A DNA stretch of 63,092 bases, filler included, from Stramenopiles sp. TOSAG23-6 (Eukaryota): assembly GCA_900128565.1 (NCBI GenBank). It is 10 parts of 10 records of this genome, joined end to end, with 100 filler letters (N's around TTAATTAATTAA, not from the genome) between each part and the next. Parts side by side here need not be neighbours in the genome. Positions count along the whole stretch, not along the records: positions 18,997 to 25,226 come from LT636749.1; 9 more parts are not named here. One strand, 5' to 3'. Made by a program: the position numbers and the translations under genes. Within the stretch, counting starts at the first letter, position 1; every line of letters starts with the position of its first letter. Below the pieces are notes generated by a model, which saw nothing but the letters and a program-made list of their open reading frames with translations, was not told the origin of the DNA and made no database searches. Positions 6,333-41,002 of this stretch are shown here, piece after piece.

Positions 6333-6441
6333 TTTTGGAAAAATATTTCAAAAAAAATCTAAAAAAATTGTTAGGTACAAAATTTACAATAAAACAAATT
6401 CGATTTTTTTTTTACCGGAAAAAAAAAAAAATAAAACATAC

Positions 6442-9400: not shown

Positions 9401-12400
9401 ATATGCTGCAACTGCTTTAAATCAGTATGCATTGCAGGATGACAATCAGCAGGAAAATGAGACACAACATCTGACAATAACAACAACATTGAATGGCGAA
9501 CAATAGGCTTTACAAATTGACCTGAAAATGTTGCTCTAATACCTGGCATCACTGTAGTTAGCATTAATCTATTACAATGAAAATTGGATACTTTTGTAGA
9601 TAAAAACTTGACAGACAAACTCAGCATCCGATGAGCATATTGGCGAATAAGCATTTCATCATTATGTATATCAAACATACACTGACTTAATATAACTTGC
9701 AGGAGGATTTGTTGATTGTTTTCTCGCATGCCAATTTCACATAATTCAATTATTGTATCTGGAATCTCAATTTTCTTTTCTTTGCATTTAGAAATCTTTT
9801 TTAATGTTTTTGAATTTTCATTAATAGGTTTTTTTATATGACTATTTTCTTGATTTTGTTGAATTGATGTTTTCGTCAATATGTCATACACTTTACCACG
9901 CTTTACAAAATTAAGTTCTTCTAGACCTTCCCAGCTATTTAGATCAGAAATGAATGAAGAAACAGTAGTAAACCAAGTCATATCAGATCTTTTTCCAATA
10001 GTAGAAAATACATCCACTAATAATTGACGTGTTACACGATCGTCATATCCACACATACTTGCAGCAGGACCAAGTAATGTCGCAAACAAGCCAATGTGTG
10101 ACATGATTACACATTTTGGAACAATAGACACTAAGGATAGCAAGACTCGTAAAACATTGTTTTTGATTGCTATAGTTGCACGAGCAGCAGGGCGTAAAAA
10201 GGGTACAATTAGTTTTACTAATGGGGCAGCAATTGTCGAGGATTTGATATACTTACTAATCTGTGATAAGATTGCTAATGCACGAGGAGCAAAAGGTGAC
10301 TTCACAATTCGTTTATCACTTCCACCGAAACGGCTTGTGAAACATGTCAATATTTTTGGAATATATGAACGTAATAAACCTTCTGTACTTGTTGCTTTTG
10401 ACGTTTGAGGTAGTAAATGTTCTACAATACTCAATACAGCTGAAACGACGCTTTCACTGACATCTTCACAGAGACAATCTAATGCTGCACTTAAAGGGCA
10501 TATTTCATTTTGAACATTTTCATCTATTTTTTCATCGTCAACGTTTTCATCTACATTTTTATACTTATACACCAACATATTCGAGACGTCCTCATGCTGA
10601 CTAGCCAAAACTTGAATAAAGTTCAATAATGCTGAAGGTTTAGTAGCCCCAATGAGTGAAGAAGACAAATTTTCAACACTACTTTGTAATGCATTCATAT
10701 ATATTTTGTACCAAAATGACCAATTGTAATCCGGATAGGTTTCAATAATAATCGACATTACATTGATACATAAAGAACGCAATTGTCTTCCATCTCTACC
10801 AGTAATATTTGAACTAATGCATTGTAGACCAATGATTGCTGGTAACACAACATGTAATTTTGGTCGAAATTTTTGTCCAAATTGTTTTACCATATCAATA
10901 CATAAATTAAGAAATCCAATACGCCTTGCACGACTTACACCATTGTTATATACATTTGCTTGTGCTACTTCAATTACACTTGACACACGGTCTTCAACAT
11001 CTTTGACGCTGACAGGAAATGAAACGTTATCACAAGTATCAAATACAAATAGGTTTTCTTCTTTCGATGAAGATAAATTCGAAATTCGTACAGGATAAAA
11101 AGGACGAATGGCATGACTTGCAATAAATCCCAACTCTTTCGGTTTTAATGTAGACAAATACGCGAGAACTGCATTACGACGATTTGATACACTTTCCTTC
11201 GCTTTCATTTTTCGTTCAATAATTCTACCCATCAACAACCGAACAATGATTGGAATAATTCCATTGCGATATATATCTGGTATACTTCCACACAAACCTG
11301 CTTCATTTTCTGGTTCAAGTTTTAAAGTTCGCATTTCATCTTTCCACGTGTCACGATTAGATAGTCTTAGTAATGCAGAACTATATTGATTTAAACTACC
11401 TTGTTTAAAAGCTAAAACACATTTTAAAGCAGAGGAAGATATTTCAGATTTACCTAATAAAATTACACAAGATCTATGTAATCTCCTGGATTCATAATTA
11501 CCCTTTAAATTTTGAAAAGTCGAAAATAGTTCTAGAAATGCAGCAATGCGTTCATTAGTGCTTTTTATGCTTACACCATTATGTACATCATTATTATCCT
11601 CATCATCATCATCAGAAGTCTTAGCAAATGTTTTGTTCATCATTTGGTTTGACATAAACGTTTTAATTATTTCTTTTTCTGAAATTTCATTTTGTGTAGA
11701 AATTGATAACAATTCCCAAGCATCAGGATCATTTTGAAATGATATATTACTATATTCACAAGCAATGCATCGAAAAAATAACGAAATTAAAAATTTGTTT
11801 TTAGATTCTGCTAAAGTTGGCATGCCTTGTAGTAGTTGTAATAGTAAAGACAATTTTTTACTAGGACCCGTAGGATCAGTATCAACAAACACGAAACCAG
11901 CGACTGACGATGAACGTAAAGCACGATTAAATGAAGAAAATAATGAAATCACATTTTTCGTGTTTTTCGTATTGAATATTTCATCTTTTGATCTCTGACC
12001 AGTTAGTTTTGCACGTAAATTTCGACGTTTTCGATTCTCATGTTCAACAAGTTGTTTCGTTTTAACTGTGTGATCCTGATTTATTTGATTCATATTACAT
12101 AAAATGTCAAGATTTTCAAGATTTTCAAGATTTTCTCTTTCTTTTTGTACATCCATTGAAGACTGACCATACCCACCACCCAATTCCTGCTCAAATATAG
12201 CACGTGTCAATTGACGAGCAGCAAGCGGCCACAATAGGCTAGTTACTTTTGGTGTATTCGATACACTTGAAAATATACTTTTTATAGTTGGCCAAATTCG
12301 ATTGTATCTGACATTAAATAGACCAATAAAATGTTGTAATGCAAAACGAACGTATATACGAGGCAAGCGACTGTTCTGCAAATACACTTTAATATGTTCC

Positions 12401-12564
12401 ATTCTTGCTCTTACGTCACGATCGCTTTCAAAATCTCTTGATTTTCTTTCGATGAATAATAATTGTTCAAATAAAAGACATTCTGTCCCAGGAATATTTC
12501 GTGTTGTACTATTTTCAGAATTATTTTCAGAATTATTTTCAGAATTATTTTCAGAATTATTTTC
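6442..12564 (-). CDS. UTP20: UTP20, redundant contig copy 2
   Basis: Identical ORF translations, offset +6332. Confidence 0.85.
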
Positions 12565-12773
12565 NNNNNNNNNNNNNNNNNNNNNNNNNNNNNNNNNNNN
12601 NNNNNNNNTTAATTAATTAANNNNNNNNNNNNNNNNNNNNNNNNNNNNNNNNNNNNNNNNNNNNTTTTGGAAAAATATTTCAAAAAAAATCTAAAAAAAT
12701 TGTTAGGTACAAAATTTACAATAAAACAAATTCGATTTTTTTTTTACCGGAAAAAAAAAAAAATAAAACATAC

Positions 12774-15700
12774 ATGATATCATTGGTCAATAATCTTAAT
12801 AATGTTTCATATTTTTGAGATATTTTTGATGTTGCACAGGAAAGAAATAACTTTTCAATGGCCATGAGAGATTGGTATACTTTTGCATCTTTTTGAGATT
12901 GAGTACTTATATCATCATCATCCATATTTTCAACATCATTTACATTTAACTCAGTATCTACTTCAGTGAGTAAAATATCTTTAATACCAAAGATGGATGT
13001 CTGTACATATTTGGTACAAGATAATAATGCGTCAGGTCTAGCATCGATCAATATACCAATTAATTGGGCAGCAGCAAGTCTCAATTTATCTTGTTGAGAT
13101 GAAATCCATTTCATTACAAATTCAATCATTTCTTCTGCTTTTTGAAGAGAACACTTTCTCAGTAATAAATTCAAGGTATTTGATATCATACGCCGACAAT
13201 CTGAGTTATGTATTTTGGAAAAATATTTCAAACAAAATCTAAAAAATATTGTTAGGTACAAATTTTTTTTGAAAAAAATAAATTCGATTTTTTTTTTTTT
13301 TCGGTAAAAAAAAAAAAAAATAAATAAAACATACATTATCATTGACAAGTCGTAAAACAAGAGGAAGAAACAATAACCCTGATTGATCATCAATTAGTTC
13401 TTTTGGAAACTTTTGAATAATTTTACCTAGAAATTTTAATAATGATAGTCGACCTGTATCGTAGGGAAATGATAAATTTTTCATTACATGATCAATATGA
13501 TTTTGTAATCGTTTCTTGCCTAATGGAAATAAAATTAAGTATAACATCAAAACTTCAGAACATGAAGAACGGATTATATCATGCTGTGACGTCACCATAC
13601 AATCCTGTAACTGTTCCATCAGAGTATACATCTCAACCGTCACAGTTTTTCTCTTGACTAGAGTTTTAATTAACTCAAAAGATGCTTTTTGTTTTTTTGG
13701 TATTTGAATACCCGACGATAGTAAATCAATCAAACACGATATTTGATTTGGGGTCAAAGTATAGTCTGAATGATGGCGTAGTAGAACACTAAGTGTGTGA
13801 AAACAACCTTGTGCCAAGTCAGCTTCTGCTGCTGCACCAAAATGGCCCAATACAGATAATAATCTGTTTACAATTCGAGGCATGAAAGACGGTAATGAAG
13901 GTAATTTCCACGAACTTAGTAATGACAGACATTTCATACTGAGCAACATTAATTGATCATTTTTTGTTCGATCACAACAACGTGTTAATAATCCAAGAAT
14001 TGGATCCAATAGAGATAAATGTGATACATCATTTCGCTGTAATTTACCTTTTTTAAGAAAGGAATATAAAGCTAATAAGGCATACTCTACAACAACATAC
14101 TCATTTGCAGTAGCATAAGAGTGGTCGATGCCACGTGTCGTTAAACATTTACCACCAGTCAACCTTGGCTCGGGCAATACTTCATAATTATCAGCTTTAT
14201 GACCATTACTTAATTTCATCTTTGAAGTTGTATCATCTGTATTGACTAACCATTTTTCGACTTCTACATTACCTTTTCCAGATTCAATTTTCATTCGACG
14301 TTTTGTTGTTGCTTTTGTATACCCAGATACAATTTTTTGTAAATAAATCATTAGATGAGGAATTTCTACACTATTATTTTGTACTAATCCTAAAGTAGCT
14401 CTTCGAAAAAGTTCTCTTATTTTGTTAATCGTTTTTTTGTCAACAGTTTCATTTAATTTTTCGCGAAGTGGTGTAAGAACAACATGAACGGCATCTGAAG
14501 GAAGAAATTGCATTGAAGTGAATAAAATTTCAAATGTGTCAAAACTTTTACACGTTTTGACTTCACGCATTTGACGATGAGCATTTGAAACACCTGAATC
14601 AATTTCCTTTTGAATCGATGCCTGGCCAAAAATATCTTCTAACACAGTAGCTAATACAGTAGGAATTATTCGCCATATTACCGAGTGATCCATTGGAACT
14701 TCTTTCGCGTCAAGAGCCTCATAAAACTCTTCAGGATGGAGTTTACTTTCAGAATCATCATCACCACGTTCCTGACGCCATTTCAGTCTTTGATCTTTCC
14801 GAAATTGTTGTTGTTCATTCATTTCAATAATACTTTTCTTCATTAATTCAGTCTCAGGTTGAAGTAAAGATTTATCATAGAGATTACGAAGTACTGCATG
14901 TAGCGTATATCCCATAATGTGTACCATATAACCCTTATTCAAAGCATCATGTAATTGTTCAACAATCATTGGAAGCTTTTGCAAACCAATCAAACACGAA
15001 ATTTCCACCAACACATTTCGTGCTTCATCTCTTGCGTGTTGTGCTTTAACACGTAACACACGGCATACAGATCTTGTTAATTGAGATATCGATGGATCAC
15101 ATATTGCACTTGGTAATTGCATAAGTAAACGAGTGAGTGCTAATGCAATCGGTGTTCGTACAGTTACTTGCGTCAAATCACTATTATGTCCCTCACCTCG
15201 ACTTACTACACGGCGTATTAATTGCTTTTGTAATGGGGGGAGTAGACGAACTTGGATTGCACGTAATATAGATTGAATGGATACACATTTTGATGTTCCA
15301 ATAGTAGCATCTGTTTCTGTTTCAATCGTAGCATCGAAATCACTTTTGATATTTTTAGGTACAAAAACATGAAAGCCGTCAAGCATCGCACATATTGCAC
15401 GAATCAAAACCTTTTCAGAATTTGGTTTTCTTGGAACTTCTTCAATTAATTTAGTAATTTCTGAAATATATTTAGACCAACTCAAACGCTGAGATAAAGG
15501 TGTTAACACTCGAATTGCTTCCTCTCTAAGATCTGCTTTTATTGAAGTTTCACTTTCGCGAACTTTGGCTAATACTAAAGGTAACAAAATGTGTACCACA
15601 GTGAATGGTTTCAAGTCAAGTGAACCTAATGAGCCTTTATCCCCTGCTTGAACACGTAATCTCTGTAAAGCCTTCACCTGTCTATGAGCTTGAACATGAG

Positions 15701-18700
15701 TCATATTCAAGAAAAAATCCTGTTCAGGATCTATATGCTGCAACTGCTTTAAATCAGTATGCATTGCAGGATGACAATCAGCAGGAAAATGAGACACAAC
15801 ATCTGACAATAACAACAACATTGAATGGCGAACAATAGGCTTTACAAATTGACCTGAAAATGTTGCTCTAATACCTGGCATCACTGTAGTTAGCATTAAT
15901 CTATTACAATGAAAATTGGATACTTTTGTAGATAAAAACTTGACAGACAAACTCAGCATCCGATGAGCATATTGGCGAATAAGCATTTCATCATTATGTA
16001 TATCAAACATACACTGACTTAATATAACTTGCAGGAGGATTTGTTGATTGTTTTCTCGCATGCCAATTTCACATAATTCAATTATTGTATCTGGAATCTC
16101 AATTTTCTTTTCTTTGCATTTAGAAATCTTTTTTAATGTTTTTGAATTTTCATTAATAGGTTTTTTTATATGACTATTTTCTTGATTTTGTTGAATTGAT
16201 GTTTTCGTCAATATGTCATACACTTTACCACGCTTTACAAAATTAAGTTCTTCTAGACCTTCCCAGCTATTTAGATCAGAAATGAATGAAGAAACAGTAG
16301 TAAACCAAGTCATATCAGATCTTTTTCCAATAGTAGAAAATACATCCACTAATAATTGACGTGTTACACGATCGTCATATCCACACATACTTGCAGCAGG
16401 ACCAAGTAATGTCGCAAACAAGCCAATGTGTGACATGATTACACATTTTGGAACAATAGACACTAAGGATAGCAAGACTCGTAAAACATTGTTTTTGATT
16501 GCTATAGTTGCACGAGCAGCAGGGCGTAAAAAGGGTACAATTAGTTTTACTAATGGGGCAGCAATTGTCGAGGATTTGATATACTTACTAATCTGTGATA
16601 AGATTGCTAATGCACGAGGAGCAAAAGGTGACTTCACAATTCGTTTATCACTTCCACCGAAACGGCTTGTGAAACATGTCAATATTTTTGGAATATATGA
16701 ACGTAATAAACCTTCTGTACTTGTTGCTTTTGACGTTTGAGGTAGTAAATGTTCTACAATACTCAATACAGCTGAAACGACGCTTTCACTGACATCTTCA
16801 CAGAGACAATCTAATGCTGCACTTAAAGGGCATATTTCATTTTGAACATTTTCATCTATTTTTTCATCGTCAACGTTTTCATCTACATTTTTATACTTAT
16901 ACACCAACATATTCGAGACGTCCTCATGCTGACTAGCCAAAACTTGAATAAAGTTCAATAATGCTGAAGGTTTAGTAGCCCCAATGAGTGAAGAAGACAA
17001 ATTTTCAACACTACTTTGTAATGCATTCATATATATTTTGTACCAAAATGACCAATTGTAATCCGGATAGGTTTCAATAATAATCGACATTACATTGATA
17101 CATAAAGAACGCAATTGTCTTCCATCTCTACCAGTAATATTTGAACTAATGCATTGTAGACCAATGATTGCTGGTAACACAACATGTAATTTTGGTCGAA
17201 ATTTTTGTCCAAATTGTTTTACCATATCAATACATAAATTAAGAAATCCAATACGCCTTGCACGACTTACACCATTGTTATATACATTTGCTTGTGCTAC
17301 TTCAATTACACTTGACACACGGTCTTCAACATCTTTGACGCTGACAGGAAATGAAACGTTATCACAAGTATCAAATACAAATAGGTTTTCTTCTTTCGAT
17401 GAAGATAAATTCGAAATTCGTACAGGATAAAAAGGACGAATGGCATGACTTGCAATAAATCCCAACTCTTTCGGTTTTAATGTAGACAAATACGCGAGAA
17501 CTGCATTACGACGATTTGATACACTTTCCTTCGCTTTCATTTTTCGTTCAATAATTCTACCCATCAACAACCGAACAATGATTGGAATAATTCCATTGCG
17601 ATATATATCTGGTATACTTCCACACAAACCTGCTTCATTTTCTGGTTCAAGTTTTAAAGTTCGCATTTCATCTTTCCACGTGTCACGATTAGATAGTCTT
17701 AGTAATGCAGAACTATATTGATTTAAACTACCTTGTTTAAAAGCTAAAACACATTTTAAAGCAGAGGAAGATATTTCAGATTTACCTAATAAAATTACAC
17801 AAGATCTATGTAATCTCCTGGATTCATAATTACCCTTTAAATTTTGAAAAGTCGAAAATAGTTCTAGAAATGCAGCAATGCGTTCATTAGTGCTTTTTAT
17901 GCTTACACCATTATGTACATCATTATTATCCTCATCATCATCATCAGAAGTCTTAGCAAATGTTTTGTTCATCATTTGGTTTGACATAAACGTTTTAATT
18001 ATTTCTTTTTCTGAAATTTCATTTTGTGTAGAAATTGATAACAATTCCCAAGCATCAGGATCATTTTGAAATGATATATTACTATATTCACAAGCAATGC
18101 ATCGAAAAAATAACGAAATTAAAAATTTGTTTTTAGATTCTGCTAAAGTTGGCATGCCTTGTAGTAGTTGTAATAGTAAAGACAATTTTTTACTAGGACC
18201 CGTAGGATCAGTATCAACAAACACGAAACCAGCGACTGACGATGAACGTAAAGCACGATTAAATGAAGAAAATAATGAAATCACATTTTTCGTGTTTTTC
18301 GTATTGAATATTTCATCTTTTGATCTCTGACCAGTTAGTTTTGCACGTAAATTTCGACGTTTTCGATTCTCATGTTCAACAAGTTGTTTCGTTTTAACTG
18401 TGTGATCCTGATTTATTTGATTCATATTACATAAAATGTCAAGATTTTCAAGATTTTCAAGATTTTCTCTTTCTTTTTGTACATCCATTGAAGACTGACC
18501 ATACCCACCACCCAATTCCTGCTCAAATATAGCACGTGTCAATTGACGAGCAGCAAGCGGCCACAATAGGCTAGTTACTTTTGGTGTATTCGATACACTT
18601 GAAAATATACTTTTTATAGTTGGCCAAATTCGATTGTATCTGACATTAAATAGACCAATAAAATGTTGTAATGCAAAACGAACGTATATACGAGGCAAGC

Positions 18701-18896
18701 GACTGTTCTGCAAATACACTTTAATATGTTCCATTCTTGCTCTTACGTCACGATCGCTTTCAAAATCTCTTGATTTTCTTTCGATGAATAATAATTGTTC
18801 AAATAAAAGACATTCTGTCCCAGGAATATTTCGTGTTGTACTATTTTCAGAATTATTTTCAGAATTATTTTCAGAATTATTTTCAGAATTATTTTC
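12774..18896 (-). CDS. UTP20: UTP20, redundant contig copy 3
   Basis: Identical ORF translations, offset +12664. Confidence 0.85.
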
Positions 18897-18996: not shown

Positions 18997-19175
18997 TGTT
19001 CTTGTTCAAGACGTAATCTTTCAGCTTCAGCCTTCTGTTGTTGTTCAAGACGTAATTTTTCAGCCTCGTCTTTTTGTTTTTGTTCGAGACGTAATCTTTC
19101 AACCTCATCTTTTTGTTCTTGTTCAAGACGCAATCTTTCAGCTTCATCTTTCTGTTCTTGTTCAAGACGTGATTT
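18997..19175 (-). repeat. 39-bp coding repeat (EQEQKDEAERLRL-like), coiled coil
   Basis: Repeated 13-aa unit running into the contig end. Confidence 0.8.
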
Positions 19176-22100
19176 TCTTTCCTCTATTTCGTTTTTGCGG
19201 CGTATAATTTCAGCTTTCTCTCGAGAACTTTGCACTTCTGTTGTTTTTACATCTCTTTCATTTTGAAGTTGTTTCACATTACACATATTGCCATTGCAAA
19301 CTTTCTCTTGAAACAATGGGAGATGTCCATCCTCAACTTTGTTACCTAAAGACCCTGAAATCGATCCATTTGCTTTAGATGTTTCATTCCAATTATACAG
19401 ATCTCCATTTGAGTCCATAAAACCACGAATAAGTTGTTTTGATTGAGGCGGTTCATCTGGTAATACTATGAATGCAGACTGTATATCGGTAACAGCTTGA
19501 CCTAAATCAACACCATCTTCTAAATTACGGCTAGTATATGCTATTGCTAATAAGTCTCCCTTGTTTACTTTAGTGTGTCGTTTGGCTCTCAGTGTTATAC
19601 CTGCGGAGTAATCAATAATATCACCAGCAAAGCGACGACCACTTCCTAAATTTACTGAAATCTCGCCTAATTTTTTTGTATCAATTTTGTGTATATATCC
19701 AGAATAAAGACTAATTACATCAGCTTCAAATTGAGGAATATGGATTCTCTGCCTCAAGGTTGTTTCTTTGTACGATCGTTTTACAATATGATTCGGAATT
19801 GATAATGGCGGGAAAATATTCTCAGAGTTAGGTGAAATATCTATAAACACTCTTGAATCGCCCCCTTGATCAACAACCATGGAAAGGAAACGTTGTGCAG
19901 CACGGCCATCTAGTAGCGCTTCTTCCGCAAGCTTATATCCCAACTGAAAATCATCTGTCTGTTTTGATGCGACTAGCATTTGCGCTGCAAGAGTAAGTAC
20001 TAAATGCACAAGATCAGGCGACCCATTTCCCTGTAAAGTCGCCCAAGCTTCTTCTACCTCTGACCAATTCCCAATAGCATTACCCAATGGTTGATCCATA
20101 TCAGTGAAAAGTACAGTTGTTTTTACTCCAGCAGCATGACCAGCCGATACCATGCACTTTGCAAGTTTTATCGCATCATGCTTATTAGGGAGGATAGCTC
20201 CATTTCCAATCTTAACATCCAAAACAATTGCACTTGCACCACCTGCTAGCTTTTTACTCATTATAGAACTACAAAGAAGAGCCAAACTTGGTGCTGTACC
20301 AGTCGCATCCCGAATCTCATAAATCGCTTTTTCAGCAGGGGCTACTTCTGCAATGGGTGATATAATTCCAACCCCTGAACTTCGTAAAATTTTGGTGAAT
20401 TCAAAATAATCTAGATCAGTATTGAAACCTGGTATGGAATTAAGTTTGTCGATAGTACCTCCCATATGGGAAAGACCTTTGTTAGATATCAATGGAACAA
20501 CTACACCGAGAGAAGCAGCAAGTGGAGCAAGAATTAAACTTGCTTTATCACCAACACCACCAGTGCTATGTTTATCTACAGTATTTATTTGTTCAAGCTC
20601 AACTCGCTTGCCGCTGTCAATATAGGCGTCAGTGAGATCTGCTATTTCTGAATTTGTCATTCCTACAAGTTGAATAGTCATTAAAAAGGCACTCATTTGA
20701 TTTTCAGTAACCGACCCATCCATAAATCCAGTAATAACATTATTTACGTCTTTTGCTGATAACACCTTACCGTCTCTCTTCTTTGCAATGACCTCACTCA
20801 TTGAGAATCGTATTATTTCTTTTTTATTTTCTTTCTCATTGTTCTCTGTCATTTCATTGCAGATAATTGCAGGAGGTGCTGGGAATCCGCCTCCTTTTCG
20901 AAAATTAAGATGTGCCACAATGTTCTTTAGTTGAGTATCGTCAATTTGAAAATAAGGACATAACTCATATTCTAGAATTTGAGTTTGTGATACCGAAGTA
21001 TTAGGAAAAACCGCGCCTGCTTTTAAAAGTTTTTGATTATAAACATCTAGAAGGATACTACTTGACGTTTTAATAGAATTTTCCACAGCAGTCTTGCTCC
21101 AATTACTATGTACAGGCGCATACTCACCATTAACACCATACCTTTCAACGTACAAGGCCACAGCATTATCAGCAAATCGAATTGCGTCGCCTATAACACG
21201 TTCATACTTAAAACCATTCAGCTTTGTTGGGGGAGTTTTTACCGCACCATCTTTACTAATGGTACCAATTCCAACTGGAACTTTGTGATAGTATAATTCA
21301 TCAGAATGGTCTAACATTTTCTTCGCAAAGTTGTTACTTAAATAAATATTTGTAATATCTTGCTTATCATATTCAAGATTTGTTACTTTAGCTTTGGGTG
21401 TGTTAAAAAGACTCTCATTTTTCAATCTACCCAAAAATTGGTTTTCGAGTGATTCAGATGTACTATATATAGAATAATTGAAACCAGAACCATCCTTATG
21501 TAAAACACCTGAAATATCACCATTATCACGAACTCTTCGAACAACTTTGAATCCAATATCCATGTATTTTGGCAAAATATTTCAAAAAAAAATCGTTAGG
21601 TACACAATTTCGTACGAAAAAAAATAAATTCGAAATTAAAATTGAAATGAAAACGTACATATTACGCTCAATATTTAATCCTATAAAAATCGGGTCGGCA
21701 ATTCGAGTTAAAGCATTGTCAGCAGAAAACAGAAATAAATGTTCAACGCCTGCTCTTTCCCATTGCAAGTCAATTGCATGTTTCTTCATCGCCGCAAAGA
21801 CTGCACCATGGCCATCAGGACTCATAGCGATACTACCATCTAGGTTATAAACAGGCATACCGTCTATGCCTACACAGGGTAATTGCGTCTGTTCAAAAAA
21901 ACGAACTTGGGCACTATCTAAGCCAAAGAACTTATTGTCTTCAAAGAAATCACGTGTTTTCCTTGAAGAACTAACACTTGTCATAATAAAAAAAGGAATG
22001 GCTGGGGTAAGAAGCATTGTCTGTAAATGAAGAAGCTGTTTAGCATACAATCCAAACAAACTTGTTTTTGAAGGTATTTCTAATGCAAGCATTCCTTTTG

Positions 22101-22425
22101 GGAGATCATCACTACAACCAGTGCCTAAGCCTTCCGCCAACAGAACTACTCCTAGCTTACCCTTTCTTAAAATATCTTCACCAAGACTTCGCCAACGCCA
22201 ACGATCTTCTAGTTCAGCGTGTGCTAAAGAAATGACGTTAGTAAAGTGAGATATTGATGTTGGTAGTTTCTCAACTATTTTGAGCTTTCGTAGCTGACTT
22301 TGGAGTTTATTAGGATCCCGTAGTGCATTTGCCAATCCAGAAAAGTCCAAAATACTATTAAAAAATAGTGTTTGTAAAAGTATAAAGACAGCCAGTTGTC
22401 CTCCATGAAAAAAAAATGCCCTCAT
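18997..22425 (-). CDS. Fusion protein: signal-peptide-like N-terminus + UDP-GlcNAc pyrophosphorylase-like (UDPGP family) domain + pyrimidine-nucleoside/thymidine phosphorylase domain + coiled-coil repeat; exons 22425-21659 and 21561-18997 (3' partial)
   Basis: UAP-like motifs GVVLLAEGLGT, PKG, IPFFIMTS, FFEQ, SPDGHG, DNAL..ADPIFIG; junction gives ERNM-DIGFKVV. PyNP motifs VDKHSTGGVGDK, GGTIDKL, SSIMSKKLAGG, LDVKIGNGA, DMDQPLG. Confidence 0.8.
21562..21658 (-). other. GT-AT intron, 97 nt, phase 2
   Basis: AAT AT|GTACGTTTT..TTTCGTACGAAATTGTGTACCTAAC..AAATATTTTGCCAAAATACAT|G GAT. Confidence 0.85.
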
Positions 22426-22907
22426 AGTAAAGAAAAACAGATATATCACTTACGTTGATCAGGCTAGTTATCAATCAATCGATATCATGCAACCAGTGCA
22501 AAATAGTTCATCTTTACTCGATGAAAAGAAAAATATTGATATTATAACTCATAGTAAAGAACAAATATAGTAAGATATGTTTTTTTTCTTTCCATCTTAA
22601 GATTCGATCCCGGCCAACGGCCAAAGATTCGAACCGACGCGACCAAAACACGAATTCGGGAATTTTCCAAAATATGAAGTCAGTAAAATCAGTAAAATAA
22701 TAGCGTCTGGAGTCGTCGTAGAATGAATAGATTAAGCCTAGCTAGATTAATTTCATTGCACTCAATTAATTGCCATTTAAAAGTTCTGTGAAAGAAAAAT
22801 TGCATTTACATTGATAGATTATCTTTGTTCATTTAATTAGAATTGTATCTAGATTTTGTATACATTATCCTAAGTACATCTAGGATCTACACGTGTACTC
22901 TGATAAT

Positions 22908-24315
22908 ATGACTATCCAACCTTCACTTCAGTTACAATGTGAAAATTCAGACCGCAATCGTAGTGACTCTTTTAGTGGTGAATTTGAAGGACCAGAAAAA
23001 ACTTTGGAGATTGATTTTGTACAAGATTATAGAGTAGGTAATGTTCCTCTTTGTAAACTCGGAGCTCGATGCCTCCCGCGATCTGTTTGGGATGAACTTT
23101 GTGCTGCAGCAAACTGTAGTATATTGGATGTTGTGCGAGGAACTCACTTTGACTCCTATATCTTATCAGAATCTAGTTTGTTTGTTTACCCTTGGAAAGT
23201 TGTCATTAAGACATGTGGTACAACAACATTAGTAAAAACAGTCCCTATACTATTAATACATGCCAAGAAATCAAATTTAAAGGTAGAGTGGGTATGTTTC
23301 CAACGTAAAAATTATTCATTTCCTGAACGGCAGTTGCCACCTCATACGTCTTTTGCATCAGAGTGTGATTATTTAAATCAATTTTTTGATGGAGATGGTT
23401 TTGTATTAGGCCCAGTGACAAATGATCATTTTTTGTTGTATGTTGCAGACGACACAAAATGGACGACGATAGCGTCTAAAGATAGAACTATTCAATTACT
23501 AATGTACGACTTGCATGAAGAAGCTGCAAAAATATTTTATAAAAAATCTCATGGATCAAATGGCGCAGATGCTGTATGCAATGCTCTTGGTCTACCTTTA
23601 CTCATACCTCCTGATAAGGGGAATATTCATGGGCATATGTTTGATCCTTGTGGATATTCAATGAATGCTTTACTGGATGACGCTTACTTCACTATACATG
23701 TTACTCCTGTATGTTTTTTTTTTTTTTTTANAAAAAAATCGAAATTTTTTTTTCGTACGAAATTTTGTACCTAACAAATGTTTTTAGATTTTTTTTTGAA
23801 ATATTTTTCCAAAATACATGAGTCGCATTGTAGTTATGCGAGTTTTGAAACAAATATACAGATTCGTAATTATCAACCAATGTTGAAGCATATACTATCT
23901 GTATTTTCACCAAAACGATTTACAATGACTGTTTTTGCCGATGAAGGAGGCCTTAAAGAAATGACTTGTATGTTTTATTTTTTTTTTCAAATTTGATTTT
24001 TTTTTCGTACGAAATTTCGTACCTAACAAATTTAAGTTTTTTTTTTTTGAAATATTTTTACAAAAAACATGTCCAACAGACCTTCACTGTCTGATTGTTG
24101 AAAGTAAATATTTTTCTACGAAAACACTAGAAAGAAAAAACCCTAACCCTAAGCAAATTCATACAACAAAACCAACAAAACAAAATGTACAAACAGAAAA
24201 TACAAATTATATCAGATATTACCGGTTAAATAAATGCCATGCTGAATTTGCTTGTGATTATTCATGCTCAATGTCAAATTTTATCATGAGAAAAGACAAA
24301 GATATTTTATCATGA
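22908..24315 (+). CDS. AMD1: S-adenosylmethionine decarboxylase proenzyme; exons 22908-23708, 23820-23967, 24071-24315
   Basis: FEGPEKTLE, YILSESSLFV (pyruvoyl cleavage site), KTCGTT, FDPCGYSMN. Splicing restores TIHVTP|ESHCSYASFETN. The last exon is open to TGA at 24313-24315. Confidence 0.92.
23709..23819 (+). other. GT-AT intron, 111 nt, phase 0
   Basis: CCT|GTATGT..TACCTAAC..CCAAAATACAT|GAG; restores the conserved TPE motif. Confidence 0.9.
23968..24070 (+). other. GT-AT intron, 103 nt, phase 1
   Basis: ACT T|GTATGT..GTACGAAATTTCGTACCTAAC..ACAAAAAACAT|GT; downstream frame open. Confidence 0.8.
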
Positions 24316-24500: not shown

Positions 24501-25174
24501 CTAATTGTCCATTGCAAATTGTTTTTTTTCATCAGTCTCCAAGTCATCAAATTCTATGAAAATATATTTCAAAAAAAAAAATCGTTACGTACAAAATTTC
24601 ATAATATAAAAAATTTGAAATTCTCTCATGATGGAAAACATACATATAAATCACTCTTTACATTTGCCATATAGAAACGTTTTTGTAGTCTATCCCCCGG
24701 GTTTCCATTACTTTGTAAATAAATGAGAGTAAATCCTCCCACATGTTGGGTGAAAAAAATATTTTTTTTTTTTACAAAAAAAAATCGTCAGGTACAAAAT
24801 TTTGTATAAAAAAAATAAATTCGAAATTGGTAAAAAACGAATGATGAAAACGTACATTACTGTTAACGACATTTTCTAGATCTCCTTCTTGCTCCAACAT
24901 TGCACTAGGAGAATGAGATAACTTGGAGAAAGGAGATGGCCAGTACTGAAAATAAGCTACTGTTGAGGTTAGATAACCCAGTATAAAACCCATAAGAATA
25001 TATTGTGAAAAAATATTAAAAACGAAACATTTCGTTAGGTACGGAATTTTCTATGAAAACAAATGTAGGTAAAAAATTTATCATGAAAATGTACATGTTC
25101 CACCAATGATGCCTTCTATCAATTAATCGACTCAAACCTATTACAAGTGAACCTAATATTAGTGAAACACATAC
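24501..25174 (-). CDS. PAP2 / lipid phosphate phosphatase family protein, 5' partial; exons 25174-25095, 24997-24856, 24742-24644, 24548-24501 (last acceptor tentative)
   Basis: Spliced product reads GLSRLIDRRHHWWNILMGFILG, matching the PAP2 C3 motif SRxxxxxHxxxD (D replaced by N), flanked by hydrophobic helices. Confidence 0.72.
24549..24643 (-). other. Family intron, ~95 nt; acceptor TTT (alternative TAG at 24554)
   Basis: TAT|GTATGTTTT; branch variant TACGTAAC; end placed by the usual 15-nt spacing after AAATAT. Confidence 0.6.
24743..24855 (-). other. GT-AT intron, 113 nt, phase 0
   Basis: AAT|GTACGTTTT..TACCTGAC..CACCCAACAT|GTG; following 99-nt exon is open. Confidence 0.78.
24998..25094 (-). 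other. GT-AT intron, 97 nt, phase 2
   Basis: AAC AT|GTACAT..TACCTAAC..CACAATATAT|T CTT; restores the PAP2 motif. Confidence 0.82.
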
Positions 25175-25226
25175 AAGTATTGTGAAAAAATATTTCAAAA
25201 AAAAAAAACTAAAATTTGTTAGGTAC
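25175..25226 (-). other. Family intron 3' part, probable CTT acceptor
   Basis: TACCTAAC..AAATATTTTTTCACAATACTT|GTA; donor lost at contig end. Confidence 0.65.
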
Positions 25227-25379: not shown

Positions 25380-26814
25380 GTGTTTGCGGATGGTAGGATT
25401 AGTGTTACTTGGGAAGCAGATGGTTCCATCAGTGAAATGGAGTGCAATTCTGCCAATGTCTTACCAAATGATTGGGATAAATGGATGGATTATGACAACG
25501 ATGGATGGGTTGATGGATTGTGGGTTCGTTGTGTTGATGATGAAGATAGACTATATTATTTTAATACAGCTACTGAAGAGACACAGTGGAATAAGCCAAT
25601 TTTGGACATAGAAAATAGCGATTACATGTCTGACAGTTCACTGGAATATTTACACCAGAAATCCAAAGAAAACAAAGCAATTGTTGCATTTGCAGAATGG
25701 GCACCAGTACCTGACGAAGAGGAAGACGTCGAAAATACCAAAGTAAACGTAAATTCTGAAGTAGACGTACAAGAAGCAGCAGGTACAACCAGTACAGAAG
25801 AAATTGCGGTATCAATGACTGAATCAATTCCTGAGAATGATTTAGGAATTGTGCGATCTATTGCGGCATATAATCCAAATATAGAAGACAATAGAGAAGA
25901 AACTGTTAATGGTGAAGATGGTGATGCCGGAGGAAGTTTACACGAATTGCATCTTCGTGAAAACGATCTTATTCGTGTATTTCATCAACAGGAAGATGGA
26001 TGGTGGTATGGCCAGCGTTGTTCAGGAACAGCTGTAGATTATAAAGATGATCAAGAAAACGACAAAAAGACTAATGAAAACGTTGATGAAAAAGATGACC
26101 AAAATTATATATCTAGTGGTAGCGATTTTGGTTGGTTTCCATCAACATATGTTGAATGGGTTGAAGAGGTCGGTGAGGTTGTTGCTGTAGCAGATTATGT
26201 TCCTGACTCAGGTTTAGAAATGCAATTACTATTATCGGAGGGCGATAGAGTCAGAGTACTACAACAAGAAGATAGTGGCTGGTGGCATGGAATGAATCAA
26301 TTTGGTGTATGTGGTTGGTTTCCATCTACATTTACATCATGGTGTGAATATGATGAAGAAGAGTCATATAATAATGATGTTACTGTTGATAATACAAATA
26401 TGAAAGACTCTATAAAAGTGAATAGATTACATAATATTGATGATTATAATCAACCACAAGAAATAGAAAGTGATACAGATAGCGAATCGTCAAGTTATGA
26501 GGAAGACAGTAATTCTCTTAAAACTATGCAATTTAGTGTGAATGAAGTAGTTGAATCTAGATTTAGAGGTAAAGACCGTTGGTATATGTACGTTTTCATC
26601 ACGATTTGTTTTTTTTTTTCGTACCAAATGTTGTACCTAACGAATTTTTATCCAAAACAAAAATATCTCTTCACAATACATTGGTAAAGTTGTAACAGTC
26701 AACCGAAACTCATATGATATTTTGTATGATGATGGGGACCTTGAAAAAACTGTTAATCTAGATTATGTTCGACCTCGTGGGACGAAAACAGCACAAGAGT
26801 TGAGAGTAGAGTAG
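25380..26814 (+). CDS. WW + two SH3 + Tudor/Agenet-like domain protein, 5' partial; exons 25380-26587, 26682-26814
   Basis: WW (WVRCVDDEDRLYYFNTATEETQWNKP); SH3 x2 (GWWYG..GWFPSTYV, GWWHG..GWFPSTF); spliced C-terminus RWY-I-GKVVTVNRNSYDILYDDGDLEKTV is Tudor-like. Confidence 0.8.
26588..26681 (+). other. GT-AT intron, 94 nt, phase 2
   Basis: TAT AT|GTACGTTTT..TACCTAAC..CACAATACAT|T GGT; no AG between branch motif and junction. Confidence 0.87.
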
Positions 26815-30808: not shown

Positions 30809-31468
30809 ATGGATATCGATGGTGGGGGTGGAGTGGTTGATGATTTGTCAGTAAAAATGCAGTGTATTCCGGCAACACCAGACTCACAAATAGAGGATCG
30901 AATGGACACTGATTTTGATAGTAGACCCTGGTGGCCAACAGGAAACTGCCAAGTCTATTCTCAATCACACGCTCGTTTTGTCCATGATCCTCAAATCAAG
31001 TTAACCCCTCTAGAATGTGATGTTTTTGGTATTATCCGTGAAGCAATTAGTTTAGGTAATACTGGGACTGTGGCCCGTTGTGCTGGTGGATGGGTTCGTG
31101 ATAAGTTGCTTGGCAAAAGTAGTGATGACATTGATATTGCTCTAAACAATATGAAAGGTACAGAGTTTGCTTCACTTGTGCAACAAGTAATTCGTGGTCG
31201 TCTAGGAGAAGAAAGTGTAGATCGGGTACATACTATCAAGGCTAATCCAAGTCAATCGAAACATTTGGAAACTGCAACAATGTACGTTTTTCAAAATTGA
31301 ATTCTTTACCTACATTTATTTTTTTTTTACTACAAAATTTCGTACCTAACACATTCCAATTCTATATTTTTTTTAACAATCCATGCGAGTTTTAGGTATT
31401 GACGTAGATTTTGTACATTTAAGAACTGAGACTTATACAAAAGGTTCACGAATCCCATTGATAAACAT
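30809..31468 (+). CDS. CCA1: tRNA nucleotidyltransferase (CCA-adding enzyme), 3' partial; exons 30809-31281, 31385-31468
   Basis: RCAGGWVRDKLLGKSSDDIDIAL; splicing gives SKHLETATM-RVLGIDVDFVHLRTETYTKGSRIP. Confidence 0.9.
31282..31384 (+). other. GT-AT intron, 103 nt, phase 2
   Basis: ACA AT|GTACGTTTT..TACCTAAC..AACAATCCAT|G CGA; first downstream AG is out of frame. Confidence 0.87.
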
Positions 31469-31554
31469 GAACGTTTTATTTTTTTCAATTTCGAATTTAT
31501 TTTTTTCGTACGAAATTTTGTACCTAACAAATTTAAGTTTTTTTTTTTGAAATA
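31469..31554 (+). other. Family intron with GA donor, 3' end truncated
   Basis: AAC AT|GAACGTTTT..TTTCGTACGAAATTTTGTACCTAAC. Confidence 0.7.
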
Positions 31555-31962: not shown

Positions 31963-32098
31963 ATTTGTGTTTGTAATTATAATTATATTTGTGTCTGATA
32001 ATTATAATTATATTTGTGTCTGATAATCATGTTTGTGTCTGATAATTATATTTGTGTCTGATAATTATATTTGTGTCTGATAATTATATTTGTGTCTG
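31963..32098. repeat. 19-bp tandem repeat (CAGACACAAATATAATTAT) overlapping the hydrolase stop codon; mirror at ~37430-37565
   Basis: About 6-7 degenerate copies. Confidence 0.85.
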
Positions 32099-34084
32099 AG
32101 AAGCTTTAATGATATTTGCTATAGTCTCTGAAGAGTAAATAAAATCACCATGTATACTATTGGGTCTCCAAACAACTTTTACTATCGATGACAAATCTTC
32201 ATTTGACTTATTTTTTATTCTACTCTTGTTTTTATATCCATCTTGTAAATATTCTCGAACATCAGCAGAAGGAACAATATTATCATCTCCACCAAGAAAA
32301 ACTGTTGTTGTTGATGATTTTGTAATTTGTTCATTCATACAATTTGACACAACATTTTTTTGTCTTTTTTGTCTTTTTTGTCTCTCATTACCGTTTACTA
32401 CAGAGTATTGTCTCTGATGTATTTCATAAAGATCCTCTAGAAATAAAACATTCTCAAACCAATCAAATTTATGGGACAAAATAGTTGCTAATCGTTTTTC
32501 AGTTGTAAAAAAATAATGTGAAAAATATTCATATGTATTTCGAGGTTGTCTAAAAAGTACATTGATACAAACATTGTGATGATACAGTAGAAAACAGACA
32601 GGATCAATAAATACAGCTCGACAAATTCTTTCTGGTTTTGCTTTGATTAACCAGGACATAGGTATTGAACCAAATGAGTGGCCTATTGCAGATATTTTTT
32701 GATTATCATGACCATGTTTCTCAAGCATTGTCAAAACAGCAGACACTAAAGCAGCAGGAGGTAATGCATCACCTTCATCATCATTAGACAATCGTAATGA
32801 AATCGATGAATTTTCCACTAGAAATACATCTCTTTCAACAACTCCATTATTTACTACATGTAACCCTTTGATAAGTTTTGTATAGATAGAAAATCCTATA
32901 CCAAGACCATGAAAGAATATTGCTGGAGAAATTTTTATCTCATTCTTTTCAATATTGTTTTGTGTTTCAGTTGTACCAGCTTTTCTGTACCAATAAATCA
33001 TTTCAAATTCTACATTTGATACATTTTGTACAGCTGTACTTTTTATATCGGGAAGAATAGGAATAGATATCTTAACAGTTTCACGAGTATAACCAAGCAT
33101 TAATTGAAATATCATAGGCTCAATTACATATTGCATCATAAGATGAGAAAAACCATATAAAAATAAAGGTCGAGGTAAAGAATGTATAGCTTCTATACCA
33201 TGTCGTATTGGACGTGAATATTTAAGAGGTGAACATGATTTTACTTGAGTTCGTTTATCATTTGTCATTGCTGAAATGATTTGATTATTCGCAATAGTCT
33301 CTGTATTGCAAAACAAGTGTTGTTTGGTCTCTTCAACACTACCAAAATCGATAGAACCAATATTTTCACTACCATTTGCAATACACTCAATATCATCTAC
33401 TACTTTTGATATCGTATTCTGTAATACACTGTCATGTACACAATGGATTCCATTTCTTGAATTACTTCGCCAATCAATTCGTATTTGGAACAAAGTCCAT
33501 GCTATAAATGATTCTATCCCAGAACGTGTAAGGCAGTCATATGATTTTCCTCCAAACCAACCTTCTAACCAAGATCTCATCTTTACAGGTGTTCCAACTG
33601 AAGAAAGCATCTTTTTCCAATATTGCATACTAACACTATATGGAAAACGTGATAATGATGAAAATCTACGAACACCTTTTGTAACATTTTTGTCCATCAA
33701 AGTGTCGTTCAGTTTTCGTTTCCACACCCAACGCTGATACACGAGGTAAAATATACACTCCAGTAAACTAAAACATTTAATGAAGGATGTAATCCCACTC
33801 GGCCATAGATTTTTGAATACATTACGCCGTGATATATTGGTTGTTTTAAATTTATATTTCTTCAACCATAAAACTAATTTGCGGACCCAATAGAATGTCG
33901 AGAGTGGACCAACACTCTGTAAAATAACAATGACCGATTTCAATACAAAACAAGCAACAGTAGAAGATGACGTGGTTGAAATATTCTTATGAATTCCATT
34001 ATTTCTTTTAGTTACAGGAGACTCAACTCTTGCTCGATCCATAGGTGTCTGCATACTGTTACGTTGATTACTTGTATGATCCAC
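32084..34084 (-). CDS. Alpha/beta-hydrolase fold protein, intronless (first ATG about 10 codons in)
   Basis: FFHGLGIG, nucleophile elbow IGHSFGS, FIDPVCF, LGGDDNIV, C-terminal HG. Confidence 0.8.
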   Translation of the reverse strand: MDHTSNQRNSMQTPMDRARVESPVTKRNNGIHKNISTTSSSTVACFVLKSVIVILQSVGPLSTFYWVRKLVLWLKKYKFKTTNISRRNVFKNLWPSGITSFIKCFSLLECIFYLVYQRWVWKRKLNDTLMDKNVTKGVRRFSSLSRFPYSVSMQYWKKMLSSVGTPVKMRSWLEGWFGGKSYDCLTRSGIESFIAWTLFQIRIDWRSNSRNGIHCVHDSVLQNTISKVVDDIECIANGSENIGSIDFGSVEETKQHLFCNTETIANNQIISAMTNDKRTQVKSCSPLKYSRPIRHGIEAIHSLPRPLFLYGFSHLMMQYVIEPMIFQLMLGYTRETVKISIPILPDIKSTAVQNVSNVEFEMIYWYRKAGTTETQNNIEKNEIKISPAIFFHGLGIGFSIYTKLIKGLHVVNNGVVERDVFLVENSSISLRLSNDDEGDALPPAALVSAVLTMLEKHGHDNQKISAIGHSFGSIPMSWLIKAKPERICRAVFIDPVCFLLYHHNVCINVLFRQPRNTYEYFSHYFFTTEKRLATILSHKFDWFENVLFLEDLYEIHQRQYSVVNGNERQKRQKRQKNVVSNCMNEQITKSSTTTVFLGGDDNIVPSADVREYLQDGYKNKSRIKNKSNEDLSSIVKVVWRPNSIHGDFIYSSETIANIIKASQTQI

Positions 34085-34396
34085 ACACCCGTAGCTTCGA
34101 AAACTAGTAGAAGGTAGAAATAGAGGAGTCTCTGTTTTTCAAGTCAGTAAGTCGTACACACAGAAATAATAGTCGTCGTGTAGTAGTCAGTTGAGAAATT
34201 CGATTTTTCGAAACAAAATTGAAAAAATTGTGTTTTTCGTGCGCGTGCAACTTTTTTTAACGGTTGTGAAACGGTTGATCCAATATGTGTATATATGGGT
34301 GATACTAACTAGTATTTATTGGTATTTTTCTATTCATCAGGGAAATCTTTGAAAGGTTTCGAATTGCGTTTCTACCGGTTCAACTTTCTTAGAAGC

Positions 34397-35063: not shown

Positions 35064-35114
35064 GTATGTTTTCAAAATTGAATTTCAAATTTTTTTTTTG
35101 TACCAAATGTTGTA
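35064..35114 (+). other. Family intron 5' part, interrupted by the inversion junction
   Basis: TCT T|GTATGTTTT..TGTACCAAATGTTGTA, then switches to the reverse copy. Confidence 0.7.
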
Positions 35115-35443
35115 ACCTTATAGCGGTTCATGCTTCTAAGAAAGTTGAACCGGTAGGAACGCAATTCGAAACCTTTCAAAGATTTCTCTGATGAATAGAA
35201 AAATACCAATAAATACTAGTTAGTATCACCCATATATACACATATTGGATCAACCGTTTCACAACCGTTAAAAAAAGTTGCACGCGCACGAAAAACACAA
35301 TTTTTTCAATTTTGTTTCGAAAAATCGAATTTCTCAACTGACTACTACACGACGACTATTATTTCTGTGTGTACGACTTACTGACTTGAAAAACAGAGAC
35401 TCCTCTATTTCTACCTTCTACTAGTTTTCGAAGCTACGGGTGT

Positions 35444-37444: not shown

Positions 37445-37973
37445 TTATCAGACACAAATATAATTATCAGACACAAATATAATTATCAGACACAAACATG
37501 ATTATCAGACACAAATATAATTATAATTATCAGACACAAATATAATTATAATTACAAACACAAATAAAGTTATCATTACAAACTATCATACTTAACTTAC
37601 TACACATATTATAGATGGAATTCCAATAGTATAGTTGACTTTAAAATCTAACGACTGAGCTATTTTGCTTGCAGAAGTTTCGATTTTTGACTCACTTGAT
37701 GTCAACATTTCTTTTTCAAATTTGCTTGGAATCCAACCAGATTCCCCACGAGCATACGATCGAGGCCTCGTATTTATTCGACTTTTAAACGTCCACATGT
37801 ATTTTGGAAAAATATTTCAAAAAAAAAATCGTTAGGTACGAAATTTCGTATGAAAAAAAAATTAAATTAGAAANNNNNNNNNNNNNNNNNNNNNNNNNNN
37901 NNNNNNNNNNNNNNNNNTTAATTAATTAANNNNNNNNNNNNNNNNNNNNNNNNNNNNNNNNNNNNNNNNNNNN

Positions 37974-40736: not shown

Positions 40737-41002
40737 TTATATATTAGAGTTTTAGGGTTAGGGACTTTATTTTTTCTGTTTCTTTCTACTATGTTTTATA
40801 TTTACTTGATATTTTGTACAAAGTTTCCTACAAACCAAATCCAGCAGCAATACCAAATCCAGCAGCAATAAGTCGCAATAAGTATAAACATGCCTTCGCG
40901 TGTTTTGTGTTTCTCATTTCTGATATCAATTTTTTTTATTATTTCGGAACACAGGATGTACCAAGCCTGGCAAGGCACGTTTTTCTGTTTCTTTTTTTAA
41001 AA

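Follow-up and report, generated by a model that had tools for sequence, protein, structure and literature searches.

We describe a family of short intron-like elements, ending in T where AG would be expected, in DNA from Stramenopiles sp. TOSAG23-6; the window, by which we mean the whole stretch of DNA that was analysed, is 63,092 bases long. Our worked example is an element of 111 nucleotides (nt) at positions 23709-23819 on the plus strand, which is intron 1 (phase 0, GTATGT...ACAT) of a gene for AdoMetDC. That T-ending intron-like elements occur across the window is confirmed, and they are one very high-copy mobile intron family, introner-like in character, a point that the sequence-only reading of this DNA had not noticed. 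An AG at the intron end is near-universal, and it is the catalytic centre of the spliceosome that recognises it. Probably the elements are spliced out in a U2-type reaction whose first step uses a canonical donor and branch and whose second step, passing over internal AGs, ligates the exons after a U that has a constant position within a conserved 3' module.

The window consists of ten contigs of 6,198-6,232 nt with linkers of the form N44-TTAATTAATTAA-N44 between them. Contigs 1-3 are identical, the same contig being present three times at 100% identity (1-6232, 6333-12564 and 12665-18896), as are contigs 8 and 9 (44291-50492 and 50593-56794, again at 100% identity), so that there are 7 unique contigs with a total of 43.5 kb; the G+C content of the contigs is 29-39%. 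A hidden Markov model (HMM) built from the 14 complete copies gave 29 matches in the window, corresponding to 23 unique elements, of which 14 are complete, with lengths of 91-127 nt, and 9 are truncated, at contig ends or at a chimera. The sequence-only reading had counted 23 elements, 14 of them complete, in seven non-redundant contigs, and the HMM returned the same figures. Pairwise identity among the copies in the window is 55-84%, and the 23 copies are spread over at least 10 different genes. All but one of the 23 lie in an identifiable open reading frame (ORF) on the same strand, the orientation of the remaining copy being unassignable, and the claim that the elements are in sense wherever the host gene can be identified thus holds for 22 of the 22 assignable copies.

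Every complete copy holds the box GTACCTAAC, or a one-base variant of it, followed by a T-run; the box occurs 25 times in the window against 0.12 expected from shuffled sequence, and a two-box pattern occurs 17 times against 0.00. The example can be written as GTATGT...GTACCTAAC...TTTGAAATATTTTTCCAAAATACAT, with one N at 23731, or more fully as GTATGT...CGTACGAAATTTTGTACCTAAC...T-run...GAAATATTTTTCCAAAATACAT. The donor begins with GT in 18 of 19 copies; the GTAYGT form claimed earlier fits GTACGT (9) and GTATGT (7), and it does not fit GTACAT, GTAGGT and GAACGT, each seen once. Among the 18 available 3' ends we reproduced exactly the earlier tally of 11 CAT, 4 TAT, 2 CTT and 1 TTT: the final base is T in 18/18 and none ends in AG. 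Measured against U2-type introns, therefore, the elements have the GT donor and lack the AG at the 3' end. The base preceding the donor in the exon is T in 19/19 and the base before that is A in 14/19, while the base directly after the element is G in 14/18. The branch-like box had been placed some 40-50 nt from the end; the box is present, but the distance from its A to the 3' end ranges from 34 to 48 nt. Downstream of it lies the conserved 3' module AAATATTTTTYCAMAATAYAT, which in the alignment of the copies ends at a fixed 15 nt past an AAATAT box, and because of this fixed distance the 3' boundary is set by homology between the copies and not by the reader's free choice. Conservation is highest in the donor hexamer GTAYGT and in the GTACCTAAC box. 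A second GTAC word (CGTACGAAATTTT) stands just before the GTACCTAAC box in each copy (for example at 23752-23775), and GTAC thus appears three times per element, in the donor, in the middle and in the branch-like box.

Exact removal of the elements restores the interrupted genes. When the longest ORF reaching the donor was joined, by exact removal, to the longest ORF leaving the 3' end, the best upstream and downstream frames were in phase in 13 of the 14 complete copies. We also scanned the two exon halves separately against Pfam, which made continuity testable at two junctions, and the profile was continuous at both. For AdoMetDC the SAM_decarbox profile stops at 254 and resumes, contiguously, at 255; for the SRP receptor alpha gene (SR-alpha) the SRP54 profile reaches 163, one residue short of the exon end, and resumes at 165. 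At the AdoMetDC junction TIHVTP/E (the slash marks the point of removal) the Pro is found in 119/119 homologues and the Glu in 117/119, with no alignment column between them, and the Y/E junction of SR-alpha is gapless in 120/120 homologues, so the earlier statement that exact removal restores conserved motifs is borne out at these two junctions. At the junction of a fusion gene (21562-21658), comparison with PDB chains placed the exons in order, with about 14 residues of uncertainty owing to a divergent stretch. Pfam gave no match on the short exons following the CCA-enzyme and PAP2 junctions. In searches for transcript-derived protein fragments crossing a junction, the PAP2 junction yielded no candidate (with a 47-residue exon as query), the SR-alpha exon gave a best match of only 73% identity, and for the AdoMetDC exon the only match at 100% was P0001, a database protein.

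Because removal falls exactly between ...T/GTAYGT and ...YAT/, the acceptor is not an AG. A possible objection is that splicing here is ordinary GT-AG splicing, that the AT ends have been mis-called and that the true acceptors are nearby AGs, as they are in P0001. That model does indeed use a GT..AG intron ending at an AG 3 nt downstream, and an in-frame AG follows the AT end within 45 nt in 8 of 14 complete copies. In 6/14 copies there is no in-frame AG within that distance, and the first AG after the branch-like box produces a frameshift and an early stop in 14/14; in 6/14 copies an AG lies inside the element, between the box and its end, as with the TAG 13 nt past the box in the commonest subfamily. 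In AdoMetDC the AG at +3 would remove the Glu that all but two homologues share and would leave the Pfam match one position shorter, while in SR-alpha an AG at +12 would delete ETGQ, positions occupied in 118-120 of 120 homologues. The claim that the nearest AGs shift the frame or delete conserved residues is thus upheld. P0001 itself, having lost the Glu, reads through intron 2 into a stop, and this sole published model found for a gene of the window has been misled by the AT end. Finally, the one RNA contig that skips an element (see below) leaves out 113 nt and not an AG-ended span. We regard the canonical explanation as very improbable.

The copies lie within coding exons in sense orientation, preceded by T in every case and mostly by AT, and each supplies its own signals: a yeast-like GTAYGT donor, the GTACCTAAC branch-like box, a U-run and the 3' module. 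The U2-type spliceosome would remove such a copy, presumably branching at CTAAC, and the pre-mRNA would be cut exactly between ...T/GTAYGT and ...YAT/, with well-placed internal AGs passed over. The register of the cut would be GT..AT and not TG..CA, and the choice of 3' site by the host in the second step would have been relaxed or re-tuned so as to accept a U in the last position. As for the spread of the family, DNA insertion with duplication of AT and reverse splicing would both fit.

The preference for GT..AT is drawn from conservation, since it is in that register that the conserved hexamer GTAYGT forms a spliceosomal donor. Moving the cut two places to the left, which could give AT..AC introns, was considered and rejected: in 10 of 14 complete copies the exon ends in AT and six of those would read AT...AC, but in the example the move would change the invariant Pro to His, and for 5 of 19 exons, which do not end in AT, the register is impossible.

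Several observations weigh against the interpretation given above, or against parts of it, and we begin with those that concern RNA. Read contigs were mapped only to the contig at 18997-25226, the other 8 complete introns lying outside it; X3 is a DNA metagenome, X6 and X7 are RNA runs of one study and X8 is a polyA RNA run, and parts of the window without RNA cover in X6-X8 were not counted as evidence. The spliced RNA amounts to one short contig from one run, with one junction and part of a second. This contig, X8 record 31 (230 nt), aligns to 24974-24854 and then to 24740-24643, and so skips the 113 nt of the element at 24743-24855, within the ambiguity of a GT repeat; its alignment breaks off at 24643, the donor of the following element, and leaves 11 letters unaligned. 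For the example intron no spliced RNA was found among the contigs of X6-X8, and those at the AdoMetDC junctions are unspliced: X7 record 21 continues 12 nt into intron 1, and intron 2 is present for 29 nt in X6 record 15 and for 24 nt in X6 record 16. Transcripts that retain the elements had been named earlier as a refutation; what was seen is one element spliced out and three contigs running unspliced into AdoMetDC introns, and the latter may be pre-mRNA or DNA carry-over. Element sequence is, moreover, abundant in X6 and X7, at a depth of 1,680-7,938. In favour of removal, the ratio of element to exon depth, a crude measure, is far lower in the polyA run X8 (about 30-100) than in the DNA of X3 (2,500-5,400). 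The intergenic interval 22533-22948 has zero cover in all RNA runs, where cover is too sparse to decide.

The remaining points against concern the ends of the elements. Three of the 18 ends carry T and not A at the second-last base. The 3' boundary of the copy at 24549-24643 is uncertain, as just 15 codons follow it and the frame test is ambiguous. The match of AT with AT across the two ends, 11/14 against about 9.7 expected, is a weak sign of target-site duplication, and the 5-nt terminal inverted repeat, with 61 of 70 cells paired against 42-46 in controls slid by ±2 and +4, is likewise weak as a sign. Lastly, neither sequence nor junction reads can fix the cut register, there being a flanking T on both sides: since T is invariant both as the base preceding the donor (19/19) and as the final base of the element, a TG..CA cut gives the same mRNA as a GT..AT cut at every copy.

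Such RNA as there is might also reflect removal at the level of DNA, the elements being absent from the expressed gene copies through strain polymorphism or programmed excision, and the RNA contig representing an empty allele. The family looks young and mobile, numbers thousands of copies and shows a short direct repeat at the ends, and the sole RNA junction comes from a metatranscriptome that possibly holds several strains. Neither excision nor polymorphism, however, requires the sense orientation found in every assignable copy, and the signals for splicing are conserved. The independent 2024 metagenome (records 4, 5 and 8) shows these genes interrupted in the same way, and the RNA contig that lacks one element ends its alignment exactly at the donor of the next. 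We therefore think DNA-level removal improbable.

A somewhat more serious alternative, which we nevertheless judge unlikely, accepts exact removal from RNA and disputes the two-step U2-type GT..AT reaction: the cut might be TG..CA, or a non-spliceosomal pathway might act through inverted ends and a direct repeat, of the kind proposed for non-canonical introns in euglenids and Amoebophrya. The invariant T on both sides always leaves TG..CA possible, and the copies are flanked by a direct AT(G) repeat as well as by the 5-nt inverted repeat (AT/GTA...TAC AT/) just mentioned. The introners of Amoebophrya carry inverted and direct repeats over their boundaries (PMC7789003). The best-conserved parts of the element, GTAYGT and GTACCTAAC, nevertheless fit spliceosomal signals in register 0, and the slid controls already reach 42-46 of 70 cells; neither repeat clearly exceeds what a fixed consensus in AT-rich DNA would give. 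No stable or conserved RNA structure joining the intron ends was found (RNAfold z-scores from +0.25 to -1.46 for 6 copies; RNAalifold, 0 pairs for 14 copies). The stable pairing of ends and the variable termini that mark hairpin-guided introns, of the euglenid nonconventional or Amoebophrya type, are thus not what we find. A scan of the whole window against Rfam gave 0 matches, and the window holds no small nuclear RNA (snRNA) genes. U2-type splicing with ligation after U remains, in our view, the better account.

The elements are very numerous and look mobile; no empty sites were seen, though no search was aimed at them. Ten contig ends fall inside element copies, and 6,614 contigs of X3 were placed on the single 6.2 kb contig at 18997-25226; the summed X3 depth is 4,767-37,950 in bins of the commonest subfamily against about 6-7 on exons, a metagenome sum that should be read as an order of magnitude only. 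Contigs from other loci cease to match at 23819 (38 contigs) or 23820 (36) and resume at 23967, which is the T that precedes the next donor. Introners are recognised by similar intron sequences at non-homologous sites in unrelated genes, by high copy number and by precise removal, and all of these are found here. The exons between neighbouring copies are often about as long as the DNA of a nucleosome, at 148 nt (23820-23967), 150 nt (38909-39058), 148 nt (39171-39318), 148 nt (39423-39570) and 142 nt (24856-24997), the remaining inter-copy exons being of 80, 84, 99, 434 and 787 nt; these lengths are consistent with insertion into linker DNA between nucleosomes. In searches elsewhere, the element HMM found no real element at E<=0.001 on at least 118 metagenome loci with the two-box pattern (best 0.027), and since none of them passes the HMM we take these loci to be chance matches. 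The two-box pattern had 0 matches in viral contigs and 1, by chance, in prokaryote genomes.

It could still be objected that the elements are artefacts of amplification or assembly chimeras, or else gene-killing insertions of a repeat. The assembly does contain duplicated contigs and an inverted-duplicate contig. Against this, the same exon-element junctions occur in the independent metagenome: X3 contigs cover the element at 24998-25094 and both its ends with 0 differences (X3 record 8), and they cover the 3' end of the element at 21562-21658. In the mapped data for the contig at 18997-25226 no alternative letter is listed at the intron termini, and the terminal T, for which a systematic assembly error had been named as a danger, stands. 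Frames are kept in all but one of the complete copies, all assignable copies are in sense, and the hosts are single-copy housekeeping genes with their conserved motifs intact. We regard artefact or gene decay as very improbable.

How far the phenomenon reaches beyond the window is a separate matter. The claim that this organism splices most of its introns at a non-AG acceptor holds for these 43.5 kb only; in genes that could be followed throughout (AdoMetDC, SR-alpha, long stretches of UTP20 and an MPN-domain gene) no other interruptions were seen. A change of the 3' splice-site rule across this MAST-3-type lineage, with ligation after YAU, YAG ignored and a single mobile family at thousands of gene positions, so that nearly all introns would be GT-AT, is a possibility that we think somewhat less likely than not. 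A changed rule of this kind would trace to changes in U6, U2 or U5, in Prp8, in Prp18 or Slu7, or in U2AF, the first step being canonical.

The host appears to be an AT-rich, MAST-3-like marine stramenopile. AdoMetDC exon 1 (22908-23708) matches one database protein, P0001, at 100% identity, and its source name in EukProt has the form GSMAST32..., a MAST-type marine stramenopile label; the closest named protein thus bears a MAST-3-type source name. The next best matches of this exon are 45-49% identical, with stramenopiles such as Ectocarpus among them. The independent 2024 seawater metagenome X3 shares 72% of sampled words with the window, and seawater metatranscriptomes share part.

The AdoMetDC gene (22908-24315, plus strand; Pfam and homologues) has three exons, the second (23820-23967) of 148 nt and the third at 24071-24315. 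In addition to the example, which is supported by frame, Pfam and homologues, it holds a complete element of 103 nt at 23968-24070 (plus strand, intron 2, phase 1, GTATGT...ACAT), the one that P0001 reads through to a stop. Telomere-type short words resembling CCCTAACCCTAA occur at about 24135-24150, 40765-40780 and 58950-58965, within or beside genes, and one of the three sits in the 3' coding part of AdoMetDC. On the same contig, the PAP2 gene on the minus strand carries four copies. The one in its last intron (24549-24643, 95 nt) ends in TTT and has the least certain 3' boundary, although that end aligns in register with the other copies. The next, at 24743-24855 (113 nt, phase 0), is the only copy with direct RNA support (X8 record 31), and the third, at 24998-25094 (97 nt, phase 2, GTACAT...ATAT), is supported by frame and by X3 record 8. 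The fourth, at 25175-25226, is truncated by the contig end to its 3' part and ends in CTT (HMM and termini).

Also on the minus strand of this contig, the gene at 18999-22449 joins a UDP-GlcNAc-pyrophosphorylase-like part (PF01704; PDB 2yqc, 2e-28) to a complete pyrimidine-nucleoside phosphorylase (PF02885, PF00591 and PF07831) and ends in a C-terminal repeat of the LEQEQKDEAERLR type; the fusion is unusual. Its complete element, at 21562-21658 (minus strand, 97 nt, phase 2), rests on frame and on X3 DNA at the 3' end. UTP20, on the minus strand, holds a complete element of 127 nt at 544-670 (phase 0; frame, HMM and Pfam), with identical copies at 6876-7002 and 13208-13334 in the duplicate contigs, and an element cut by the contig start (1-109, minus strand, with its donor at 109; HMM and termini), repeated in the two duplicate contigs. 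The SR-alpha element (48659-48758, plus strand, 100 nt, phase 0; Pfam and homologues) ends in TAT and has an identical copy at 54961-55060.

The other copies were placed as follows, those cut by a contig end resting on HMM and termini unless otherwise stated. On the plus strand, a 3' part at a contig start (25327-25379) ends CAT/G and is followed by the ORF of a WW/SH3 protein, whose gene also holds a complete element of 94 nt at 26588-26681 (phase 2; frame and Pfam). This protein (25380-26811, plus strand) had been called a Tudor protein, and here the identification failed: Pfam gives a WW and two SH3 domains, with no Tudor at E<=0.001 in either exon. Pfam confirms the identities of AdoMetDC, SR-alpha, UTP20, PAP2, the UDP-sugar pyrophosphorylase-like protein and a CCA/polyA-polymerase head domain. 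The CCA-adding-enzyme-like gene carries a complete element of 103 nt at 31282-31384 (plus strand, phase 2), which ends in CCAT and is supported by a PolyA_pol head domain that runs to the exon end. At the end of that contig stands a 5' part (31469-31554, plus strand) with the donor GAACGT, which is not GT; the copy may have decayed, single-cell amplification may have introduced an error, or a GA donor may be tolerated.

The contig at 31655-37873 is an inverted duplicate: the protein products of the ORFs at 32087-34138 (minus strand) and 35390-37441 (plus strand) are identical, and one element copy recurs at each end, an arrangement suggestive of a chimera from amplification. The copy in question is a 3' part at the contig start (31655-31731, plus strand), with its mirror at 37797-37873 (minus strand) arising from the inverted duplication. 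The turn of the contig holds a protein-kinase gene with a truncated element, a 5' part (35064-35117, plus strand; HMM) cut where the contig turns. A gene for a coiled-coil protein contains four complete copies on the plus strand, all placed by frame: 38815-38908 (94 nt, phase 0, GTAGGT...GTAT), 39059-39170 (112 nt, phase 0, ending in TAT), 39319-39422 (104 nt, phase 1, with the branch-like box GTCCCTAAC) and 39571-39661 (91 nt, phase 2, placed also by its termini, ending in CTT after an exon that itself ends in CTT); the exons preceding the last three are of 150, 148 and 148 nt. A 3' part at the contig start (37974-38027, plus strand), ending CAT/G, belongs to the same gene. Two 5' parts at contig ends, both on the plus strand, complete the set, one at 44099-44190 in an exportin/importin-like gene and the other at 62980-63092 after the ORF 62226-62979.

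If true, thousands of U-ending introns with a canonical donor and branch-like box would amount to a natural experiment on site choice in the second step of splicing. They would also represent a mobile intron family spreading with a splice site that standard pipelines cannot see, and surveys that start from annotated GT-AG introns would miss such cases; the filtering of unfamiliar splice sites in PMC12130899 is an example of this blind spot. When canonical rules are applied to such uncultured marine stramenopiles, the resulting gene sets are probably truncated at the elements in a systematic way, and truncated gene sets would distort the functional and ecological inferences drawn from them.

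Among the known classes of intron, yeast U2 introns (GTATGT / TACTAAC / YAG) share with the elements the GTAYGT donor, the TAC(C)TAAC box and the U-run. U12-type introns have an RTATCCTT donor and a branch site, TCCTTAAC, 10-26 nt from the end, and AT-AC is a known compatible terminal pair. Unlike these, our elements have their branch-like box 34-48 nt from the end, and no copy carries RTATCCTT, an absence that the sequence-only reading had correctly reported. Group II and group III introns have GUGYG...AY ends, a domain V/VI structure and an organellar or bacterial setting; the ends here are alike (GUAYG..AU), but there is no Rfam match and no predicted structure, and the hosts are nuclear housekeeping genes. 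In yeast without Prp18, a fidelity factor, the second step can reportedly use non-YAG sites (PMC10711555). In yeast it is a mutant that does so, and only at a minority of sites, whereas here it would concern the normal and only acceptor of a whole family, in which AGs 13 nt past the box are skipped.

Introner elements are also reportedly the subject of Huff et al. 2016. They are known from marine algae and other protists, such as Micromonas pusilla, Aureococcus, Symbiodinium and Chrysochromulina (PMC9860276, PMC12130899), and a bias of algal introners toward insertion in linker DNA is reported in the first of these (PMC9860276). As with those introners, one family here forms introns in many unrelated genes, at very high copy number and in short copies; the element brings one splice site or more, its boundaries show a short direct repeat and neighbouring copies lie about a nucleosome apart. 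The signs of target-site duplication and of terminal inverted repeats are weak here. The families of the two studies were drawn from annotated introns ending in AG or AC, while no AG end occurs among ours; PMC12130899 accepts AG and AC 3' sites and drops families with unfamiliar sites unless they are supported by RNA.

Two further systems have non-canonical introns. In the tunicate Fritillaria borealis, 95% of introns are non-GT/AG, with AG/AC and AG/AT the most frequent termini, and U2AF is duplicated; its splice sites derive from the ends of non-autonomous transposons ('introners'), to which the major spliceosome has adapted (bioRxiv 10.1101/2025.08.15.670264). Our family is like that of Fritillaria in consisting of introner-derived introns that escape GT/AG, and AC or AT 3' ends are common there. 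However, the 5' end in Fritillaria is also non-canonical and the termini are diverse, whereas here the donor and the branch-like box look fully canonical and the acceptor alone deviates, uniformly; the host there is an animal, and here a stramenopile. In Amoebophrya more than 60% of introns are non-canonical, with repeated families, direct repeats of 3-5 nt and inverted repeats (PMC7789003). It too is a marine protist with repeated intron families and both kinds of repeat at their boundaries, but its introns show no clear terminal dinucleotides and have inverted repeats of 8-20 nt and hairpins, where ours show uniform GT..AT ends, a repeat of about 5 nt and no predicted hairpin.

We did not find GT-AT introns or introners described for MAST lineages in the literature covered, outside of which lie supplementary tables, including those of PMC5778133, PMC9860276 and PMC12130899; the main text of the paper on MAST single-cell genomes mentions introns twice, only in its methods. 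The earlier statement that no description was known therefore holds in part: none was found for a uniform GT-AT class in stramenopiles, but introner-derived non-canonical introns are known from Fritillaria and Amoebophrya. What was already known, then, are introners with canonical ends and non-canonical introns derived from introners; what is new, as judged by the literature in which we did not find it, is that a stramenopile should have a class of introns that are uniformly GT...AT while their donor and branch-like box are canonical.

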